Source: Promethearchaeota archaeon
GTDB taxonomy: Archaea; Asgardarchaeota; Heimdallarchaeia; Hodarchaeales; Hodarchaeaceae
Reading direction: 5' to 3'
NCBI GenBank assembly: GCA_048938105.1
Contig: JBHLMN010000013.1
Location: forward strand, 64,001 to 128,000
Length of the DNA stretch: 64,000 nucleotides
Position numbers and translations under genes: made by a program. Below, piece after piece: positions 37,566 to 47,324 of the stretch. Within the stretch, counting starts at the first letter, position 1; each line of letters begins with the position of its first letter. The notes below the pieces were generated by a model. The model was not told the origin of the DNA, searched no databases, and saw nothing but the letters and a program-made list of their open reading frames with translations.

Positions 37566-37621
37566 TCTTCTACCGTTCCTTTCGTAATAGGCTTCTCTCG
37601 CCAAATATATGAAAATATTGC

Positions 37622-37860
37622 GAGTACCTATCCACCCGCTCAAGGGCGAATGGAGCCCCCGCCAGGATGGTTGGGCGGGATACCTGTCCCCGTATAGGAC
37701 ACAGGCGTTGGAGTCAGACCAGTTTGAACTACGTGGACCCAGAGGATTTGATGTCACTTTACTTGATAGAGTCTTTCGCTAGCGTGCTCATCACCCAGCA
37801 ATCATTAAAACCGAGGTGTAGACGTTACTAGTTCACATTCCAAACAGTTCAGTGACTAAA
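37622..37860 (+). ncRNA. GC-rich structured segment resembling an IS200/IS605 HEARO/IscB omega RNA (orphan, no nuclease ORF)
   Basis: Consecutive hairpins (TCCA/TGGA 37631-37654, CCCGCC/GGCGGG 37658-37679, CCTGT/ACAGG 37683-37705), followed by GACCAG (37717), ACTACGT (37728) and AAACAGTTC (37842). Confidence 0.35.
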
Positions 37861-38020
37861 TTCATCAGTTAAATGTTCCTTATTACACCTCCAGCGGATT
37901 TGGTGCTAAGATAGATTTCCTTTGAGGGGGACTAATCTAGTCATAAATTATTCTCCCTTAACCTTTATATACTCACAATTTTCCGGGATGCCTCTAATTG
38001 ATCTTGTCCCGTGGACATTT

Positions 38021-38162: not shown

Positions 38163-38234
38163 ATGAAAACAATACGAATCGAAGAAATGAACTGGCAAGC
38201 TATTAAGGAAGCCATTAACCAGGATTATAAATAA
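38163..38234 (+). pseudogene. 5' fragment of an interrupted creatininase-family gene
   Basis: MKTIRIEEMNWQAIKEAINQ(DYK*) is a typical creatininase N-terminus and joins in frame to GYLTVVFGIGSIEQHGPH at 46635. Confidence 0.9.
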
Positions 38235-38235
38235 C
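38208..38235 (+). other. Left junction (attL), dif/Xer-like site GAAGCCATTAA-CCAGGA-TTATAAATAAC
   Basis: 11-6-11 layout with TAA-N6-TTA; contains the core TAACCAGG (38216-38223), which is repeated at the right junction. Confidence 0.75.
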
Positions 38236-38343
38236 AGAATGATTTTATTTCCCTCTATTTCTAAAAAACTTGTTACACATGATACAAAATATAATAATCC
38301 CACGTATGAGAGCTTTATTGAATTAAATTTTGGGGATATATGC

Positions 38344-39363
38344 ATGATTAAACTTCAATTTAAAATAGTAAACGAGTTTGAAATATCTGAAAATGCAATC
38401 GTTGGGTGGTTAAAGTCAGTTAATGAGTATGAAAGATATTTCTTAGAGAGAAAACACCTAAATCGACGCAACCTCGGCAATTTCGGAGAATTTATTGGCA
38501 AATTCATTCTTGAAAAGGAGTTTATACTTTATCAAAGAAAAACAAGTGATAGAAAAATGATACCTTGGCTTATGTTTGAAAAAGAAAATGTCTTACTAGA
38601 TAGCTATTATCTTGCCAATTTATTTTCAAATATAGAGGATGTGAGTGTTAAATCGAATATCAAAGCATGGTTGGGTGATGAAAAATTTTTATCCTTAAGA
38701 GAACATACAGGAGAGTATTTAGGAGAAATTTCTTTTGAAAAGAGAGTAGAATTGGGATTGGACGCTAATAATCAAATGATCTGCTGGAAAGAATGGAAAA
38801 AAAAGACTCTTAGATATGGACCTTTCATATTCACGTTTAAAGACCATATATTAGAGGATGTAAGGAAATCATTCATTGATTATTGGAAAAGAGAGACTGG
38901 TGCAAAATTAACGCTTACGGATACATTGGGAGTTCCTTTTGAATATTTAATAAAATGGTTCTTCCCAGAGGGGGAGAAAATAGAATATCAAAAGTGGAGA
39001 GAATATTTATACAAACGAGTGCGTTATTTTGACATTTCTTCTTTTTTGGCAAAAAACACTCAAATTGATGTGAATGATTTTATTTGCACAAATAAGGTAT
39101 TTCTCGATTTAGACTTAGATGTTTGGGGGATTCCAAAGGAAAATTCAGATTTTTTTAATAAAAAGTACTTGTATGCAATTGATTATAAATCACATAGGAT
39201 AAAATGTGTTGATCATGGAAAATATCAGACACCAGCTTTATACTTTCAACAAAGGAATTATGTAAAATCTCTCATCTTAACACAGATTGGGGTATTAATT
39301 CTATCTCTTCAATTTTGCGATTGCGGAAGAATATTTTGTAAATATTTAGTCCCAATGGTGTAA
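38344..39363 (+). CDS. Hypothetical protein, possible PD-(D/E)xK nuclease (ORF track starts it at 38239)
   Basis: NLGNFGE resembles motif I; LDLDVWG...AIDYKS resembles D...(D/E)xK. Confidence 0.45.
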   Translation: MIKLQFKIVNEFEISENAIVGWLKSVNEYERYFLERKHLNRRNLGNFGEFIGKFILEKEFILYQRKTSDRKMIPWLMFEKENVLLDSYYLANLFSNIEDVSVKSNIKAWLGDEKFLSLREHTGEYLGEISFEKRVELGLDANNQMICWKEWKKKTLRYGPFIFTFKDHILEDVRKSFIDYWKRETGAKLTLTDTLGVPFEYLIKWFFPEGEKIEYQKWREYLYKRVRYFDISSFLAKNTQIDVNDFICTNKVFLDLDLDVWGIPKENSDFFNKKYLYAIDYKSHRIKCVDHGKYQTPALYFQQRNYVKSLILTQIGVLILSLQFCDCGRIFCKYLVPMV

Positions 39364-39874
39364 TGTATTCTTTTCAAAATTATAGCATGAGGATTAAATA
39401 GATGAACGTTACCTAATGGTTCATATTTAATGCTTATGGCTCCATTTGATATTGATGGAGAAAAAGCTAATGAATATATTATTAAACAATCTATTAAGTC
39501 TATTATTAGTCTTTTCGGGATTTTCATTAGGCCAATGCAACATCCATACACGAGTATTCTCAGTCTTGAGTAATGCGTTCTATGATCCTGAAATTTTCAA
39601 AGTATTACATAAACAAGGATTACTCGAAAAAACAAACAATATAGGTCAATGGAAGATTAAAGAGTCCTCCTACACCTTTTTACAAATATTTATTTGTAGA
39701 AAGGCTCTTTTATATCTGTTCTTTAAGAAACATATCGCAGTCACTTTTGTTCGGTATATTACTAATAGAAATTTTATAGAATCAATGTATACATTATGTA
39801 TTAGGTACGGGTACCTTACAGACGTAGTGCAAAATCTTAAATAGATGAAACGATTCTTTCTAGACTGATTAACA

Positions 39875-39997
39875 TTGATAGACTTAACGCCATTATATAA
39901 TGGACTTTGGACAATCCTTGGAGTCATTTTAGTCTTAGGACTCATAGCATACTTCGGTGATCTACTAGTATCATTTATAGATAAGATTAGTAAATAA
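39875..39997 (+). CDS. 40-aa single-TM small protein
   Basis: Manual translation from TTG: (M)IDLTPLYNGLWTILGVILVLGLIAYFGDLLVSFIDKISK*; below the ORF-track cutoff. Confidence 0.45.
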   Translation: MIDLTPLYNGLWTILGVILVLGLIAYFGDLLVSFIDKISK

Positions 39998-40109
39998 TCA
40001 GAATTCAAAATAAAGATGATTTCAAGAGTATGAGGGAAGACCACCTCCTCTCAGTCAGGAGTGGCATTATTTATTTTTTATAGGCATATTATAGGAATAA
40101 GAGGAGACG

Positions 40110-40373
40110 ATGAGAATGAGTAATCAAATTTGTATAAGCTGTGGCAATAAAGCCAAGTACAATTGCTTGAATTGTAACAGACCAATTTGTGGTAGATGTA
40201 GAAGTAAACAGAAGAAGATCAAGGATGAATCTCTCCTTAGTTTAATAGGAAGTACAGCAGATAGTCTATATTACCGTCCTGCTGGGTTATGTAAGGATTG
40301 TAGACCTATTGTATTAATGAAAAGAGGAATCGATACTTATTTTAAATTGATTGATATAATAAGAATTAACTAA
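40110..40373 (+). CDS. Small Cys-rich zinc-finger protein
   Basis: Four CxxC pairs; GAGGAG upstream. Confidence 0.65.
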   Translation: MRMSNQICISCGNKAKYNCLNCNRPICGRCRSKQKKIKDESLLSLIGSTADSLYYRPAGLCKDCRPIVLMKRGIDTYFKLIDIIRIN

Positions 40374-40390
40374 GGGAGGTTAGATGATTT

Positions 40391-41038
40391 ATGAAATGTC
40401 CGCATTGCACAGTTGAAATATTCGCAGATAAAAAATACGAACAAATTTACAATTTTTCTGATAGAAAAGGAGATTGGAGATTAGTTTTTTTCAAATGTCC
40501 TAGTTGTATGAATTTTACTTTTGATCTAGAGAATGGAAACCGTAGTAAAACTGCGTTTGATATAAAAGAAACAATTAGAGTATATCCTAAAGGCAGCTCA
40601 CGTCCTCCTTGTCCTCAAGAAGTTCCTCAACATGTAGCAGAAGACTATACAGAAGCTTGCTTGGTTCTTATTGATAGTCCAAAAGCCTCTGCTGCATTAA
40701 GTAGACGCTGTCTTCAAAATATTCTTCGAGAAGCTGCTGAAGTTAATCCTAGCAATCTTTCAACAGAAATTCAAGAGGTATTAGATGGTAAAACTTTACC
40801 TACTTACATTGCGGAATCTATAGATGCGGTAAGGAATATTGGTAATTTTGCAACTCATCCAAATAAAAGCAATAGTACAGGTGAGATATTACCCGTCGAA
40901 CCAGAAGAAGCAGAATGGAATTTAGATGTACTAGAAGCATTATTTGACTTTTATTATGTCCAACCAGCTAAGATACAAAAAAAGAAGGGTGCATTAAATA
41001 AAAAATTAAAAGAAGCAGGTAAGAAACCTATGAAGTGA
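40391..41038 (+). CDS. Zn-ribbon plus DUF4145 (HEPN-like) protein
   Basis: CPHC/CPSC; DYTEA..SPKASAALSRRCLQ; R-NIGN-xx-H; GGAGG RBS. Confidence 0.85.
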   Translation: MKCPHCTVEIFADKKYEQIYNFSDRKGDWRLVFFKCPSCMNFTFDLENGNRSKTAFDIKETIRVYPKGSSRPPCPQEVPQHVAEDYTEACLVLIDSPKASAALSRRCLQNILREAAEVNPSNLSTEIQEVLDGKTLPTYIAESIDAVRNIGNFATHPNKSNSTGEILPVEPEEAEWNLDVLEALFDFYYVQPAKIQKKKGALNKKLKEAGKKPMK

Positions 41039-41050
41039 GGAATTAATATA

Positions 41051-41755
41051 ATGACCAAAAAGATCTGTTTTTTAATTTGTCCTATTGGTAAGGAAGGTAG
41101 TCCAGAGAGAAAGAGAGCTGACCAGCTTTATAACCACATTGTGATTGAAATATTGAAAGAATATGATTTTGAAGTCATTAGAGCAGATAAAATCGGTAAA
41201 CCAGGAATAATTACTCTACAGATTATTGAACAGTTAAATAGTGCTGACTTGGTTATTGCTGATTTGAAAGGGCATAATCCTAACGTGTTTTATGAGCTCG
41301 GGATTCGTCATGTCATTGGAAAACCTATAATTCAGATATATCATCCTGATGAACGAATCCCTTTCGATGTATCTGGATTAAGAAGCATTACACTTGATAT
41401 ACAAGACTTAGATAGTGTAAAAAATTGCATAACAGAGCTAAAAGAGCAAGTAGAATCGATTTTGGAAAATCCTGAGGAATTAACATCACCTTATACTACT
41501 GCTATTGATTATCAAACACTAAGATCAAGTGAAAATCCGATTGGAACAGCTTTAGCGGATATCAAAGAAAGTATTGAGAGTCTAAGAACACAAATAGAAG
41601 AATTAGAACATTCTACAAGGTTTGTACCAATAACAAGAACGAGATTTGATTTAAGTAAATATTTTACTGATGACAAAGAACGAAAAGCTTACAAAACATT
41701 GCAAGAGGCTTTTGATGCACAACCAACTAATCAAAACAACAATGACGAGATTTAA
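41051..41755 (+). CDS. Nucleoside 2-deoxyribosyltransferase-like (NDT/TIR-like) protein with C-terminal coiled coil
   Basis: CFLICPIG, RAD, ADLVIADL and NPNVFYELG. Confidence 0.8.
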   Translation: MTKKICFLICPIGKEGSPERKRADQLYNHIVIEILKEYDFEVIRADKIGKPGIITLQIIEQLNSADLVIADLKGHNPNVFYELGIRHVIGKPIIQIYHPDERIPFDVSGLRSITLDIQDLDSVKNCITELKEQVESILENPEELTSPYTTAIDYQTLRSSENPIGTALADIKESIESLRTQIEELEHSTRFVPITRTRFDLSKYFTDDKERKAYKTLQEAFDAQPTNQNNNDEI

Positions 41756-41810
41756 AGCTTATTGCAATGATTACTTACTGAGTACATTAAGGATAGCGAA
41801 TCCTAATATC

Positions 41811-42371
41811 CTATTCCTCTTCTTCTACTTCATTAATTTCATTTAATTCTCTTGATTCTTCAATTAATGGTTGATGCTCGTTCTCCACACTTTTAGTTTC
41901 TTTAATCTCTCCTCTGTGGACATAAAACATAATAGTTAAAAGGAACATAAGGATTATGAAATATACCATAATTCCATTGGTAAATGAGGAGGAATAAGTA
42001 AATATTTCATCTAATGCATAATGCCCTTCCATAAAGTAAATGACCAGAGTAATAATACCTATCACTGATAAAATTATTGTCACAAGGATAATATGTCTTC
42101 CTATTATCTTATTTCTTTCATTTCCAAAGAAAGTATTTACTAGAAAAACGTACGAACTGAAAACACCAATTGTTAAGATCAACCAATTTTGCATTTCGGT
42201 TGGATCATAGGACAATCCATAATCGAGAAAGTATTGCAACATTATAAGACCACAGATAACGAAAGTAAAGCAGAGTGCTTCTTTGTAAGCCTCTTTTAAT
42301 CTTTGAGTATCAAACTTATTCCTAATTCCCTCTAACCTCATCTTGATCTTTTCTCCCATTAATATCAACAA
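41811..42371 (-). CDS. Four-TM membrane protein with acidic tail
   Basis: Four hydrophobic segments. Confidence 0.65.
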   Translation of the reverse strand: MLILMGEKIKMRLEGIRNKFDTQRLKEAYKEALCFTFVICGLIMLQYFLDYGLSYDPTEMQNWLILTIGVFSSYVFLVNTFFGNERNKIIGRHIILVTIILSVIGIITLVIYFMEGHYALDEIFTYSSSFTNGIMVYFIILMFLLTIMFYVHRGEIKETKSVENEHQPLIEESRELNEINEVEEEE

Positions 42372-42399
42372 GTGTTTAAGAAAAACTCAGTTATTCAGT

Positions 42400-42423
42400 T
42401 AAATAAGCCTTTCGAACGCAGAA
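42400..42423 (-). promoter_or_regulatory. BRE/TATA promoter module, copy 1 (TTCTGCGTTCGAAAGGCTTATTTA)
   Basis: 22/24 identical to 46491-46514; CGAAAG followed by an AT-rich box, upstream of the gene starting at 42371. Confidence 0.6.
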
Positions 42424-42528
42424 GAACTCTAAATGTTTTCTCCTGATTACGTACACCTCCCTCCTAATTGTTCATTGAAGTTTTGTTATATTCAATTCCT
42501 GAAATCAGGAGTTTTAATTTAGAACTTC

Positions 42529-43932
42529 TTAGAGAAATCCTCTCCTAATTTCTTTAGATATTTTCTCATAAGTCTTAGGGTTAATGTCAGCCCTTAGAAG
42601 AAGTAAATCAGAAATAGGCTGCCTAATCCCAAAATTATCGAATTTAGAGATGACCTTAATAGCGATCTTTGTGGTAATAATCTCTAAAATCTGATTTAAT
42701 TTTGGGTTTAATTCTTCAAGATTTTCAACGTATATAATTTCTGCTCCTGGCTTGACTCTGGCAAAATATTCTTGAACTTCAGGTGCAATCTTCTTTGTTG
42801 ATACTATTATCGCATAATCAGGTTTATAGAGACCAATTCGGCCTCCAAAAGGATACGCATGTCCCATTGAAAATTCGTTGTCCTTAAGTTCAAACATTAG
42901 CAATGTTCCCTCTAGATCAATAAAAGCATCTATTTCCTCGGTTCCTTCTAATAAATTAAGCAATATTTTATCTCTAGGAATACCGAGCTCGATTAATACT
43001 CTTACTAATTTAGCTGTCATCCAATAGCTATGATCTAACATTCTTTTTAAATCATCTGTCGGACTAAAAAGCGTTTCTATTCTTTCTTCAGATATTGGAT
43101 TACCACAAGAACACAAAACACCCATTTGGGTCATTTTTTCGATCGAATCTTTCGATTGAACTCTATTAATTTGGTTTGAAGTTTTATTACAAATCACAAC
43201 ATACTCTTGTGAAAGGAGATTAACCTTTGTCAATTCTTTAATGATTTCTTGAACTTCTTCTACTTCCCTACCTGCCTTTTTTTCGAGATCTGTGGCTAAT
43301 ATCCCACCTGATCTTTTTATTAAAAGAGCTAGATGTCTAATTGAAGGATTTTCTAGGTATATTGATAGCTCAAGATCATCTTCAGATATATTATTTGAGG
43401 GAATAAACCTTGTTTCTTCACTATTAGAGAGCCCTTCAAATTTTTGGTTTACTGTCTGAAGTTCTTCCCAAGCAAAAGTTAAATCAAGGTCATTTAATAT
43501 TATATTTAAACTGTTTAATAGGTTTTCAAGCTGATCAGGACTCTCATCAACTTTAAGACAACCTACCTCAAGAAAATATTTTCCCTTTTCATCTTTAGAA
43601 TCACCTTTTCTTTCTTCTTCTTCTTTATTTACTAGGATATATAGAAAACCATGTTCATTAGGAGTGTAATAAAGGTCTCCAATTATAGGATTCAAAGATT
43701 CTTTATAATATCTAAAAAGAGAGTAAGATCTATAGATAAAGTCTATCTCCAAATCTCTCATTTTCCTTGTTTTTAAATCTGATTCCTCAACACCGAATGT
43801 TTCAAAAAATCTCTTCTCAGCTTTCGATATTAACGGGTTGAATCCCTCTTCAGCTAGTTTATCTATAATAGAGTCGAAATATTCTATTTTATAATCAAAA
43901 GGAGTTATTTTCCTTTTTATTTTTATTGTCAT
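42529..43932 (-). CDS. wHTH/Zn-ribbon protein with C-terminal restriction-endonuclease-like (Mrr-type PD-(D/E)xK) domain
   Basis: EEIDAF..LLMFELKD and AIIVST; helix-turn-helix segment DLEKKAGREVEEVQEIIKEL; ICNK/LCSCG. Confidence 0.6.
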   Translation of the reverse strand: MTIKIKRKITPFDYKIEYFDSIIDKLAEEGFNPLISKAEKRFFETFGVEESDLKTRKMRDLEIDFIYRSYSLFRYYKESLNPIIGDLYYTPNEHGFLYILVNKEEEERKGDSKDEKGKYFLEVGCLKVDESPDQLENLLNSLNIILNDLDLTFAWEELQTVNQKFEGLSNSEETRFIPSNNISEDDLELSIYLENPSIRHLALLIKRSGGILATDLEKKAGREVEEVQEIIKELTKVNLLSQEYVVICNKTSNQINRVQSKDSIEKMTQMGVLCSCGNPISEERIETLFSPTDDLKRMLDHSYWMTAKLVRVLIELGIPRDKILLNLLEGTEEIDAFIDLEGTLLMFELKDNEFSMGHAYPFGGRIGLYKPDYAIIVSTKKIAPEVQEYFARVKPGAEIIYVENLEELNPKLNQILEIITTKIAIKVISKFDNFGIRQPISDLLLLRADINPKTYEKISKEIRRGFL

Positions 43933-44081
43933 TGTTAAACCCCTCTCTAAATGTACGGTTTTTCGGCTTTACTTAAAAAATCTCTTATTTAACCAAAGAT
44001 ATTTGTTCCCCTTGTTTTTATCTTTAGAATAATACTAATTCTTTAGTCTCATGATTATTTCTCTTAAATATCTTAATTAGA

Positions 44082-45157
44082 TTAGGTCGGAGTAACCTTA
44101 AGGAATCCAAAACCAATTAACTCTTTTATCAAGTCCATTGCTTTTGCTTTTAGCATATCTTTATCAAAAGAGATGTAACCTAAATCACTAAAATCACTGG
44201 CGAGACTTACTCCTGTTTCTTTAAGAATAACAATTTTTTTCCCGTATAAAACACCAGCTGCTCCTAATTCGAATACTGCATTATCACTCGGTCTAAAAAT
44301 CTCATTATCATTCTCATCAATGTACTTTTCATCAGCAGTGAATATTACAATCGCAGATGTACATTTATGCATCAAATCAGCTATTTTTTCTGATATGGGA
44401 CGTCCTATATGTGGTTCATCAACTGCAACGCTGTAAGGAACTTTAAATTCATCTAGTATGTTCTTAAGTTGCTCCAGTGGTTTTCTTTTTTTTCCATGAA
44501 TTATAAAAATCTTGTTAATATGTGGTTTTTCAATTAGAATAGCAGGGGGTGCTTCTACAGGCTCCTCTTCTTTCACCACTAATCCAAGATCTTCCATTTC
44601 TTCTAGTTCAGAGATCTCTTCATGCGTTGCTGGTACTCTAGTAGAAAGATTATCTAATCGTACATATGTGCTACCACTAATATCTTCCAAGATACCTAGT
44701 TCTGTTCCATTTTTAGTAATCATCTCATAACAAGTTGTGACATCATCCTCAGGAATTTTAAAGTCTCTAGTAAATGTATTCTGGATAGGTTCTAATTGGG
44801 GGAATTTATGAGTATCGTAACGCTCGAAAAATACTTTGAATACTTTAATAGAAAGCAAAGCCTCAAGAAGTGCATTATTTTTCTCTTCAATATTTTGTGA
44901 AGCAACTATTGATCTACCTCGTTCCGTTAGTGAAACACTCTTTGCAGCAAACTCCCTTTCGTAAGACCAAATTGACCTGAAGCAGTTATAAGGTTTCTGA
45001 ACCAGCTACTTGTTGGTGATTGCTCCAAAACCTTTGCAAGGTCTAAAATAGCATATGGTTCTCCTGCATTATAATCCTGGATCGCTTGTGCCACCCTTAC
45101 TGAATCCATTAAACTCTTTCTGGGAAATAGACTTTTTCTTCTCTTTTTCTTAGCCAA
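44082..45157 (-). pseudogene. Frameshifted gene for a wHTH plus CAP12/Pycsar-type TIR-like nucleotide-binding protein
   Basis: The 76-aa and 258-aa ORFs join if one base is restored near 44950 (GLTKGS-x-AAKSVSLTERGRSIV..LLEALLSIK). The C-terminus has KIFIIHGK, AIVIFTADE and RPSDNAVFELG. Confidence 0.8.
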
Positions 45158-45202
45158 TTCCTACTCACCTAATTCTTTAATGTTATTTTATGTTATTCTC
45201 CC

Positions 45203-45601
45203 TTAAATTCTACCAAAAATAATCATTAAAAGAAATATAATAAATGCAATCGTAAGAAAAAAGCTAGTAAACCCCGAACCACCACTCATTGTATATATGT
45301 CTCTTCCTAATTTGGTAGTTTTTTTAACACGATTATAATTTCTGGTTGGCGATACAACATCTGTGATGGCTTTTTTTGTTTCTTTTTTAACTCTTGAAGA
45401 TGCCAGTCTTTGTTTAGTAAAATCCGACCACGATTTATTTCTTTTAATTTTACCATATCTGTCAAAAGACATCGCTCTTGTTTTACCACGAACGTTTATC
45501 CTTCGCCAATCCTCTTCTTCACCACCTTTTATTGCTGCAAGCTTAATAATTATTAGAATTCCGATTATAGCAAATACTAATATAATTATTTCCTCAATCA
45601 T
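45203..45601 (-). CDS. Basic protein with N- and C-terminal TM helices
   Basis: Two terminal hydrophobic segments around a Lys/Arg-rich middle. Confidence 0.6.
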   Translation of the reverse strand: MIEEIIILVFAIIGILIIIKLAAIKGGEEEDWRRINVRGKTRAMSFDRYGKIKRNKSWSDFTKQRLASSRVKKETKKAITDVVSPTRNYNRVKKTTKLGRDIYTMSGGSGFTSFFLTIAFIIFLLMIIFGRI

Positions 45602-45893
45602 GGTGAGACCCCTATACTTTTACCAAATTAGTAAGAAATCTGATTGTAAGTTATTTACCTTACTCACATTACTCTAACCAATTTCTCGGTCATGTTCTCT
45701 AGGAAAATCATCTATTTAAGATTTGCCTTCTAAGAGCTATATTCTTGTAGTGCCTAACTTCTGTACCTAAGGCCACCATATTTAAAATAATACATTCTTT
45801 AAAAAAGAATTAAAAGCCATTAAATACTCTATTCATAATAAGAAAGGTGATTTGATAATGAAATAAAATACTGAGGCTATTTTGACATTATTT

Positions 45894-46385
45894 TCATATA
45901 CCATTTAATTTAAAGATCAAAGAGATTGTGAAAAACAGAAAAAATATAAGAAACAACGATTCACCAGTGAAATAAGCACGATTGCACCATTTTTCTTTGT
46001 TGAGAACAAATTCAACTAATAATTCCTTATTTTTGAGTTTTCTCCATTCACTGGCCTTAATCTTTAGATGTTCTAAATAAGATTGTTTTTTTCCATTTTT
46101 ATCCAAGGGAAAATGGCTTTTAAACAGATAAAAATTGCCAGTAATCTCGTCATGATTGCTTCTAATGTACATAATTACAATTAACCAGACAATAGTAATT
46201 AGTAGAAAGATAATCGTATAAAATCCTAGATCTGCTCTCCAAGCAAAATAAACCATTCCAATACTGAGAGTAAATAGATAGTGTGTAAACGATAATCTAG
46301 TTTGTAGTCTCTCTTTAACAGCGGAAACAAGATATTCAAAGATCTTATCATCTAAATCAACTTCGTTTTGTTTATTATTAGACAT
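45894..46385 (-). CDS. Three-TM membrane protein (possible defence effector)
   Basis: Hydrophobic segments; AGGTG RBS. Confidence 0.6.
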   Translation of the reverse strand: MSNNKQNEVDLDDKIFEYLVSAVKERLQTRLSFTHYLFTLSIGMVYFAWRADLGFYTIIFLLITIVWLIVIMYIRSNHDEITGNFYLFKSHFPLDKNGKKQSYLEHLKIKASEWRKLKNKELLVEFVLNKEKWCNRAYFTGESLFLIFFLFFTISLIFKLNGI

Positions 46386-46447
46386 ATCAACACCTAATTA
46401 CACTTTAATTTATCTGATTCCCTCTATCCTTCTATTTTTATAGCACA

Positions 46448-46475
46448 AGTGATTATAAAAGTACTTATAAGAAGG
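46448..46475 (+). other. Internal dif/Xer-like site AGTGATTATAA-AAGTAC-TTATAAGAAGG
   Basis: TTATAA-N6-TTATAA; left arm 9/11 identical to the attR left arm. Confidence 0.55.
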
Positions 46476-46490
46476 AATTACCTAAAGAAA

Positions 46491-46514
46491 TAAATAAACC
46501 TTTCGAACACAGAA
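46491..46514 (-). promoter_or_regulatory. BRE/TATA promoter module, copy 2 (TTCTGTGTTCGAAAGGTTTATTTA)
   Basis: Canonical CGAAAG-x-TTTATTTA pointing into the minus-strand cargo genes. Confidence 0.65.
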
Positions 46515-46597
46515 ATATACAATTTGTTGGCAAGATTTTGCGTGGTGTGTAGTTCACATATGCTGAAACAGCTGAATATACAGGTTTTTGTTTTTTT

Positions 46598-46617
46598 TGA
46601 CTTCACTTTTGAAGTCA
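46598..46617. other. Perfect hairpin TGACTTCA-CTTT-TGAAGTCA flanked by T runs, abutting attR (terminator or accessory site)
   Basis: 8-bp inverted repeat ending 2 bp before the attR left arm. Confidence 0.5.
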
Positions 46618-46619
46618 TT

Positions 46620-46647
46620 TTTGATTATAACCAGGGTTATTTAACAG
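46620..46647 (+). other. Right junction (attR), dif/Xer-like site TTTGATTATAA-CCAGGG-TTATTTAACAG
   Basis: 11-6-11 layout; spacer differs from attL by one base. Confidence 0.75.
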
Positions 46648-47324
46648 TAGTTTTTGGGATTGGATCTATTGAACAACATGGACCTCACTTACCAACCAAC
46701 ACGGATGCCTTAATTGGTGATGTTCTAGCTAATAAAGTAGCAGAAAGATTAAAGAATGCTTTACAAGCCCTTACAATGCGGGTAGGTTGTTCGCGTCATC
46801 ATATGGCTTTTCCTGGCACAATTTCGTATAAAGATTCAACTTTGAAAGCTGTTATCCACGATTATGTGCATAGCTTAGTACATCACGGTTTTAAGAACAT
46901 TATTTTAATCCCTAGTCATGGAGGGAATTTTAGACCAACACAAGAAGCGATTGATGAGCTCAAAGAAGAGTATCCCGATAGTAAAATTATTGGTTATACA
47001 GATCTTTTTGGGCTCTTGGATGCTTTACATAGATTTTCAGGGGAATTTGGCGTCACAAAAGAAGAATCTGGAGCACACGCAGGTGAATCTGAAGCTTCTC
47101 TTATGTTAGCTTTGGCAAAAGATCTTGTTAAAGAAGAATCTTTCGAACCTGGATATGTTGGAATAGTTGGACCAGAACAATCACAACTTATTTTTGAAAA
47201 GGGAATGACTGCATTAACAAAAAATGGTATTTTAGGAGATCCAACAAAGGCAACAAGTGATAAAGGCGAAGTATACCTTGAAAATCTAGTAAAACTTCTT
47301 GTTGACGAAATTAAAAGGAATTAA
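46629..47324 (+). pseudogene. 3' part of the interrupted creatininase/mycofactocin-peptidase-family gene
   Basis: GSIEQHGPHLP..D, HHMAFPGT, SHGGN, HAGESE and NGILGDP; the native start lies at 38163. Confidence 0.9.

Follow-up and report, generated by a model that had tools for sequence, protein, structure and literature searches.

Hodarchaeales are close prokaryotic relatives of eukaryotes. The DNA analysed here, referred to as the window, is a 64,000-nt stretch of contig JBHLMN010000013.1 from an archaeon of this order. Positions 46492-46630 of the window are probably where a mobile module of genes ends on its right side, the module belonging to a system that spans the Hodarchaeales. The proposed explanation, whose probability as a whole is put at about 0.72, runs as follows: (i) an Xer-type tyrosine recombinase would act in trans on sites made of two 11-nt arms around a 6-nt spacer (11-6-11) with the sequence CCAACG, giving rise to arrays of modules that lie in the same direction, (ii) the module end would bear its own inward promoter, so that expression signals move with the module and no fixed platform is involved, (iii) a second 11-6-11 pattern further inside (46448-46475, spacer AAGTAC), called the inner site below, would be a repeat made by chance or by slippage in the leader of that promoter.

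An earlier note on this DNA had read the same stretch as a capture platform, in which the inner site receives genes under a resident promoter in the manner of Pc-attI in integrons. Its coordinates hold: the inner site lies 172 bp from the right junction (46448-46475 against 46620-46647), and a predicted promoter on the minus strand, with a transcription factor B recognition element (BRE) and a TATA box (promoter 1, 46491-46514), stands 15 nt from it, with five minus-strand genes beyond, the third of which proves to be frameshifted.

The site family and the conserved module end

Many intergenic 11-6-11 sites with the spacer CCAACG split variable regions into modules, which hold one to four genes in either orientation with their own predicted promoters, or no gene at all. 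With an arm model trained on other genomes only, the genome has 22 intergenic CCAACG sites, compared with 0-2 for ten control hexamers. The arm model and the control hexamers are both needed here, because the raw k-mer count of the site is not above that of mononucleotide shuffles. Neighbouring sites are co-oriented in six of six pairs; some sites with variant spacers are inverted. The arms are symmetric, and a given type of arm can stand on either side of the spacer. Conserved extensions of 25-140 bp lie behind the arm, one type bearing a predicted promoter, and gene-less mini-modules of 177 and 193 bp carry the same end arm. Two species (genomes G009 and G011) share a block of 1,744 bp at 99.4% identity, and the identity stops at the spacers at both ends. 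An integron reading of the CCAACG sites as attC was rejected: their conserved boxes are only 4 nt apart, which is the geometry of a double-stranded site, and there is no IntI.

The conserved module end in the window (46492-46630, ∼140 bp) consists of the family arm, an accessory repeat adjoining it (46598-46619, an 8-bp inverted pair here and direct in other copies) and, at the inner edge, promoter 1 with its TATA box at 46498-46491. It is 76% identical both to a copy on C6, which like C3 is another contig of this genome (G000), and to a copy on the metagenome contig L125. With different genes beyond it, the end recurs on C6, C3 and L125 and in the related genome G006, which bears out the earlier expectation of an end conserved beyond one occurrence. 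The 27 bases ending at the spacer of the right junction are found at six further places in the genome, where the spacer is CCAACG or one base off. As a motif, the arm has seven genome copies that score 40-46, with the next best at 17 and shuffles at 16 or below. Among congeners it occurs in 7/20, among the other genomes of the class in 1/61, and the named records that bear it are metagenome-assembled genomes of Hodarchaeota, Hermodarchaeota and Heimdallarchaeota. L125 has the same arm as the right junction in the window, but a canonical CCAACG spacer. Promoter 1 is kept in C6 and L125, partly kept in G019, and decayed in C3 and G006; on the alignments, it belongs to the mobile end itself, which sets the arrangement apart from Pc-attI. 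A sigma-70 promoter scan stayed at background, with a model unsuited to archaea, and no Rfam match was found.

The stretch with the inner site and promoter 1 is the right half of a block of 8,412 bp, measured spacer to spacer (38225-46630), which has 31.6% GC against 35.1% for the window. The block is integrase-free: it contains no recombinase gene, and the three tyrosine recombinases of the genome are located elsewhere. It severs a host creatininase gene on the plus strand into a 5' piece of the first 18-20 codons (38163-38224) and a 3' piece (46631-47324, Pfam PF02633). The creatininase orthologues are uninterrupted in four congeners (G014, G009, G015 and G011), and both neighbours of the gene are retained in G014 and G009. 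At the right junction (attR, 46620-46647, plus strand), the family arm at 46620-46630 is followed by a host-derived spacer, CCAGGG, and the host right side. The left junction (attL, 38208-38235, plus strand) has the spacer CCAGGA at 38219-38224 and an element-side arm that is not of the family type; no homologous left end was found in 23 genomes of the order, and no left-end family emerged. Both junction spacers start with CCA, the sole overlap of the target pseudo-site with the family spacer. The target is a run of creatininase codons, intact in relatives, and not a chromosomal dif. The block entered the creatininase gene off-target. It is likely that a block of at least two modules, joined at 42469, was involved, that the shared CCA was enough for the first strand exchange, and that the host spacer was left at attR; off-target junctions retain the spacer of the target both at attR and in the G006 copies.

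A convincing chromosomal dif of the genus was not obtained by palindromy, by proximity to xerA or by consensus pattern. The best matches to the dif consensus lie in unrelated contexts, and they are not found in the complete genome G009.

Several further observations concern the sites and the block. At L036 16378 (G009:3941382), an arm of the attR type stands on the opposite side of the spacer, which shows the arms to be interchangeable. Strong family-type arms with non-canonical spacers occur at C14 86371 and 250384, C64 2413, C6 238486, C56 216687 and C7 12432, and are either off-target junctions or members of a second spacer class. A unit of ∼60 nt that has TATA-like boxes and no gene is repeated at C3 5730-5816, C3 13671-13757, C11 158587, C52 2430 and C9 100434; on C3 it sits between a CCAACG-type site and a strong variant-spacer site, and it is possibly a promoter cassette. 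Two overlapping, near-perfect 11-6-11 palindromes at C8 36888-36933 are intergenic and unrelated to the family arms. The creatininase operon is preceded by an intergenic block rich in GC (window 37600-37950), for which Rfam gave no match.

The inner site and the two promoters

The points at which homology between module ends breaks off bear directly on the inner site. Homology to C6 ends at 46492, to C3 at 46497 (BLAST) and to G006 at 46527; all of these lie outside the inner site, so cargo variation does not begin there, contrary to what had been proposed. With L125, the homology stays in register through the inner site to about 46413 (p=0.008), although the right arm of the site is lost in L125. 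Homology to a second promoter in the window (promoter 2, 42400-42423, minus strand) likewise crosses the inner site, to about 46413 (p=0.0015). The switch of cargo falls at the TATA box or ∼35 nt further inside, and in no case at the inner site. Arm scores at the equivalent position are -1.6 at promoter 2, -5.1 in L125, 0.1 in C6, -20.8 in G019 and -18.9 in C3, so that the site is missing from five homologous copies. Long module ends available for this comparison are few (C6, C3, G006, L125 and partly G019), and the metagenome scan gave two contigs.

This breakpoint map already largely refutes an attI-like model, in which the inner site would be a capture point and promoter 1 a resident Pc that reads into captured genes. 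The model is now very improbable, even though the geometry is as described, the end module and its promoter recur with other genes, and promoter 1 has demonstrably changed the gene that it serves. The usual archaeal distance from TATA to transcription start is ∼25 nt, and the start predicted from it (near 46466-46470) would fall within the inner site, which also agrees with the model. Besides the breakpoints at 46492, 46497, 46527 or, further inside, 46413, it has to contend with the absence of attC boxes and hairpins between the cargo genes, of IntI, and of a second copy of the inner site at up to six mismatches in the genome. The spacer AAGTAC matches CCAACG at 0/6 positions (1/6 when inverted), and Acinetobacter Xer sites that lacked a closely related central region failed to recombine (PMC11705084). 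The one good internal site of the block lies upstream of promoter 2, not between a promoter and its gene. An architecture of promoter followed by capture site is probably not real; what stands of the integron- or pdif-like proposal is the reuse of the end with other cargo, in modules that resemble those of pdif and integron systems, and what falls is the capture platform.

Promoters 1 and 2 are identical at 22 of 24 positions, with TAAGAA 17 nt away at both, as described in the earlier note. This similarity is far beyond chance: at three mismatches or fewer, 5.85 Mb contain three matches, the two here and a third on C6, where the module end is homologous. Taken alone, TAAGAA in the matching register has p of about 0.02; it belongs to a longer homology and is missing at that offset in C6 and L125. 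Given the longer homology, its recurrence reflects common descent of the promoters and does not represent a recombinase arm that is repeated. The paralogy of promoter 2 to promoter 1 extends over ∼85 nt of leader and first codons, and promoters 1, 2 and L125 align over ∼110 nt, from the BRE to the first residues of a 186-aa gene (p=0.0015). This gene, under promoter 2, encodes a predicted membrane protein (41811-42371, minus strand). A truncated homologue lies behind the same promoter and module end in L125 (score 68; shuffle maximum 60 of 2000), and further homologues occur in 7/82 genomes. Behind promoter 1, the start of a gene of this type survives as five codons followed by a stop (46410-46427, minus strand, in register with 42318-42335 and L125), after which comes an unrelated 163-aa gene. 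The gene originally served by promoter 1 therefore appears to have been of the 186-aa type. Both promoters would descend from one module end that served the 186-aa membrane gene, which was replaced behind promoter 1 with five codons left over, and the inner site would have arisen in that leader as a repeat, by chance or by slippage.

Upstream of promoter 2, at a distance of 45 nt, is a family-like 11-6-11 site with the spacer CAAAAC (42469-42496, minus strand). Its arm score of 14.4 is reached by only 24 genome positions and stands at the 68th percentile of true sites, and the site is intergenic. It is likely an internal module joint, to judge by its arms and position; no module swap at 42469-42496 was shown in the homology comparisons. 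The order at both promoters is site, promoter, gene, the reverse of Pc-attI. Since promoter 2 is paralogous to promoter 1 and has this better family-like site upstream, promoters would seem to travel inside modules. A 6-bp inverted repeat abuts the site (window 42497-42510) and resembles the hairpin beside attR.

The inner site has an arm score of 6.4, a level met once per 1,139 bp of genome. Its inner arms are not significant genome-wide: TTATAA-Nn-TTATAA occurs 8 times at n=6, and over n=2 to n=15 the counts range from 1 to 11. The site can be viewed as a tandem repeat of 12 nt (46447-46470, with 10/12 identity), of whose unit promoter 2 has a single copy. Repetition of the palindrome TTATAA every 12 nt is by itself enough to produce the 6-6-6 pattern. 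The inner site is therefore most likely a look-alike, a tandem repeat due to chance or slippage inside the promoter leader.

Alternatively, the inner site could be a junction that the same recombinase made, now decayed or formed off-target, either an old insertion scar or an accessory site that is only bound, for example in the control of promoter 1. The left arm of the inner site, which alone scores 3.1, does resemble the attR arm, off-target junctions keep the spacer of the target, and the gene-less mini-modules of 177 and 193 bp, which are of similar length, carry the same end arm; short modules without genes are frequent in the family. A junction should, however, break the homology of its flanks, and here both flanks are co-inherited in L125 and promoter 2. 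As the tandem repeat of a palindromic hexamer yields the pattern unaided, a junction at this position is unlikely.

The earlier note had also considered that the inner site and attR fold into a single-stranded attachment site (attP) of the CTX phage type. This would suit an element that lacks an integrase, and the plus strand does fold somewhat better than shuffles (z=-2.1). Neither strand, however, pairs the inner site with attR in minimum-energy or centroid structures, and the identity of the two sites is higher in direct (15/28) than in inverted orientation (12/28), as had been noted. The target is a coding pseudo-site instead of a chromosomal dif, and the end motif has no match in IMG/VR. 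A folded attP is hardly credible on these grounds.

Some results weigh against treating the inner site as a look-alike within a system of the kind proposed. The inner site and attR do have the same inner left arm, with 9 nt in common, whereas the right inner arm is that of attL (6 nt in common) and not of attR, where the earlier note had both arms the same; the combination is unique in the genome. In the CCAACG family, sites often come in pairs with 37-311 bp between them, making such a site plausible a priori. A poor arm score alone does not exclude function, as the real left junction scores badly too (-7.8, with 0.8 for the reconstituted attP). As for the modules, only 5 of the 33 ends of shared blocks are, on both sides, no more than 15 bp from a core (null mean 0.9).

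Matches to the inner site in other genomes were followed up and rejected. A 23/23 match starting at the inner spacer in G002 covers the final codons, with the stop, of a conserved MoeB/ThiF-like gene, whose orthologue in the present genome lacks it; it is taken as chance, being the only such match in 40 genomes. Weak matches in G018 and G011 lie outside module contexts.

Cargo genes and the candidate recombinase

The first gene behind promoter 1 encodes a predicted membrane protein of 163 aa (45894-46385), for which 81 other genomes of the class gave no match. It is followed on the minus strand by a gene for a 132-aa protein without family match and with its own TATA-like boxes upstream (45203-45601), a TIR-domain gene in two frames of 76 and 258 aa with a frameshift near 44960 (44082-45157; Pfam PF10137, E=1e-17; PADLOC PDC-S35), a gene for a 467-aa protein without family match (42529-43932), and the 186-aa gene. 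The gaps between the five genes are 292, 45, 149 and 157 nt long and two of the genes have their own TATA-like boxes; the five are not one tight unit. The paired boxes of attC (RYYYAAC..GTTRRRY) are absent from six gaps, folding between the genes is unremarkable (z from +0.9 to -1.3), and no AAGTAC-type site lies between cargo genes.

On the plus strand, window 40391-41755 encodes a DUF4145 protein (PADLOC PD-T7-4, E=2e-21) and then a nucleoside deoxyribosyltransferase-like protein, a pair that is likely defence cargo. A non-coding or decayed stretch at window 39533-39698 has 74-87% matches in G009, G018 (twice) and G005, often just past a gene end, and may be the remnant of a gene or represent another family of module ends. 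In the gap before a zinc-finger gene, 39933-40051 and 40089-40136 match G019:C20 (76%) and G018:C310 (85%).

The enzyme that would act on the CCAACG sites has an about even chance of being the host XerA, a somewhat lower chance of being an integrase linked to a small ribbon-helix-helix (RHH)-like gene, and a small chance of being another. One of the three tyrosine recombinases of the genome is XerA by NCBIfam (283 bits, cut-off 220). Against the IntI profile TIGR02249 the three score 173, 64 and 28, below the cut-off of 265, so that none is IntI. There is one XerA per genome, and it scores best with the XerC model; the consensus family arm agrees at 10/11 positions with the XerC arm that is commonest in Acinetobacter (PMC10132070).

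If the RHH-linked integrase is responsible, the sites would belong to small elements of an RHH-like gene and an integrase (the L002 and L053/L055/L056 types), the modules would be non-autonomous passengers, and XerA would be uninvolved; the rest of the preferred explanation is compatible with this. Of the six tyrosine recombinases other than XerA, four have a CCAACG site within 350 bp, and L002 stands at the head of a series of co-oriented sites on C56. In 2/7 L002 relatives a family-type arm directly precedes the small gene, although none of the seven has a CCAACG site nearby. The RHH-linked integrases are mutually only 25-43% identical, against near-identity of the sites across species. All six genomes examined have XerA, which is conserved like the sites (68-91% identical), and in G003 and G006 (83-91% complete) modules are present with XerA as the only recombinase found. 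The XerC-like consensus arm and the fit of XerA to the XerC model likewise speak for XerA.

On C56 (188087-202139), the L002 operon of a small regulator and a tyrosine recombinase starts 68 bp from a CCAACG site and is followed by co-oriented sites at 200741, 197796, 195400, 189427, 189247 and 188087, a layout that resembles an integron but has an enzyme other than IntI. A further tyrosine recombinase gene (L003, C45 377-844), on a 5.9-kb contig, is broken by TAG. In the Hermodarchaeota contig L148 (2988-5611), two tyrosine recombinase genes converge, and the first is preceded by a family-like arm.

Comparison with known systems

Literature searches found no description of a Hodarchaeales module system. 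Such a system would be a concrete way for Asgard archaea to gain and shuffle genes, its off-target insertion points to how little spacer homology is needed, and the inner site offers a negative control, a dif look-alike expected not to recombine. In a broader reading, held at just short of even odds, Hodarchaeales would run an integron-like chromosomal cassette system with a single homomeric Xer-type recombinase and no attC hairpins, in which some of the module ends serve as portable expression heads (arm, accessory repeat, promoter and leader) that gain new reading frames, and 3 bp of spacer homology admit blocks into ordinary genes.

Other cargo-carrying mobile DNA is known from Asgard archaea. 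The aloposons (PMC8813620) and the Atabeyarchaeia elements (PMC11529989) are described as cargo transposons or as having their own integration machinery, unlike the block here; PMC11529989 makes no mention of Xer. The archaeal XerA/dif system (PMC2958812, PMC8371274) is similar in its two inverted 11-nt arms, 6-nt spacer and one XerA per genome, but archaeal dif is single-copy, whereas at least 22 sites lie in variable regions here.

CTX phage is one of the integrative mobile elements exploiting Xer (IMEX), as is TLC (10.1101/2021.09.09.459576). Like these, the block is integrase-free DNA inserted through a dif-like site with short homology at one end of the spacer. It differs from CTX-type elements in its pseudo-site within a coding gene, the lack of a folded attP, and the lack of recognisable phage or replication genes.

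Integrons and clusters of attC sites lacking integron-integrases (CALINs), including archaeal ones (PMC9668308), have tandem arrays of unrelated genes in the same direction, and gene-less units occur here as in superintegrons (PMC11014356, PMC6557892). Unlike integrons, the Hodarchaeales modules come with no IntI, no attC hairpins and no attI/Pc platform. The pdif or dif modules of Acinetobacter plasmids and the chromosomal dif-module islands (PMC6449649, PMC11705084, PMC12907356) likewise have 11-6-11 sites with an XerC-like arm, accessory genes between sites, arrays, near-identical modules across species, and no recombinase in the module. XerC-like sites of this geometry that bound accessory genes are found in the CCAACG family, and the attR arm is of this type, while the inner site is not; the same module in different contexts, ending at sites, is found in the G009/G011 block and was not shown for the window's own cargo. 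The differences from pdif are that the system is archaeal and its enzyme putative, that both arms are XerC-like with no XerD arm and one XerA in place of an XerC/XerD pair, that neighbouring sites are mostly direct and have one spacer in common, where pdif modules are bounded by inverted sites with often differing spacers, and that conserved extensions of 25-140 bp lie behind the arm, one type with a promoter. The stretch works like the end of a pdif module or an integron array, yet it is a member of neither.

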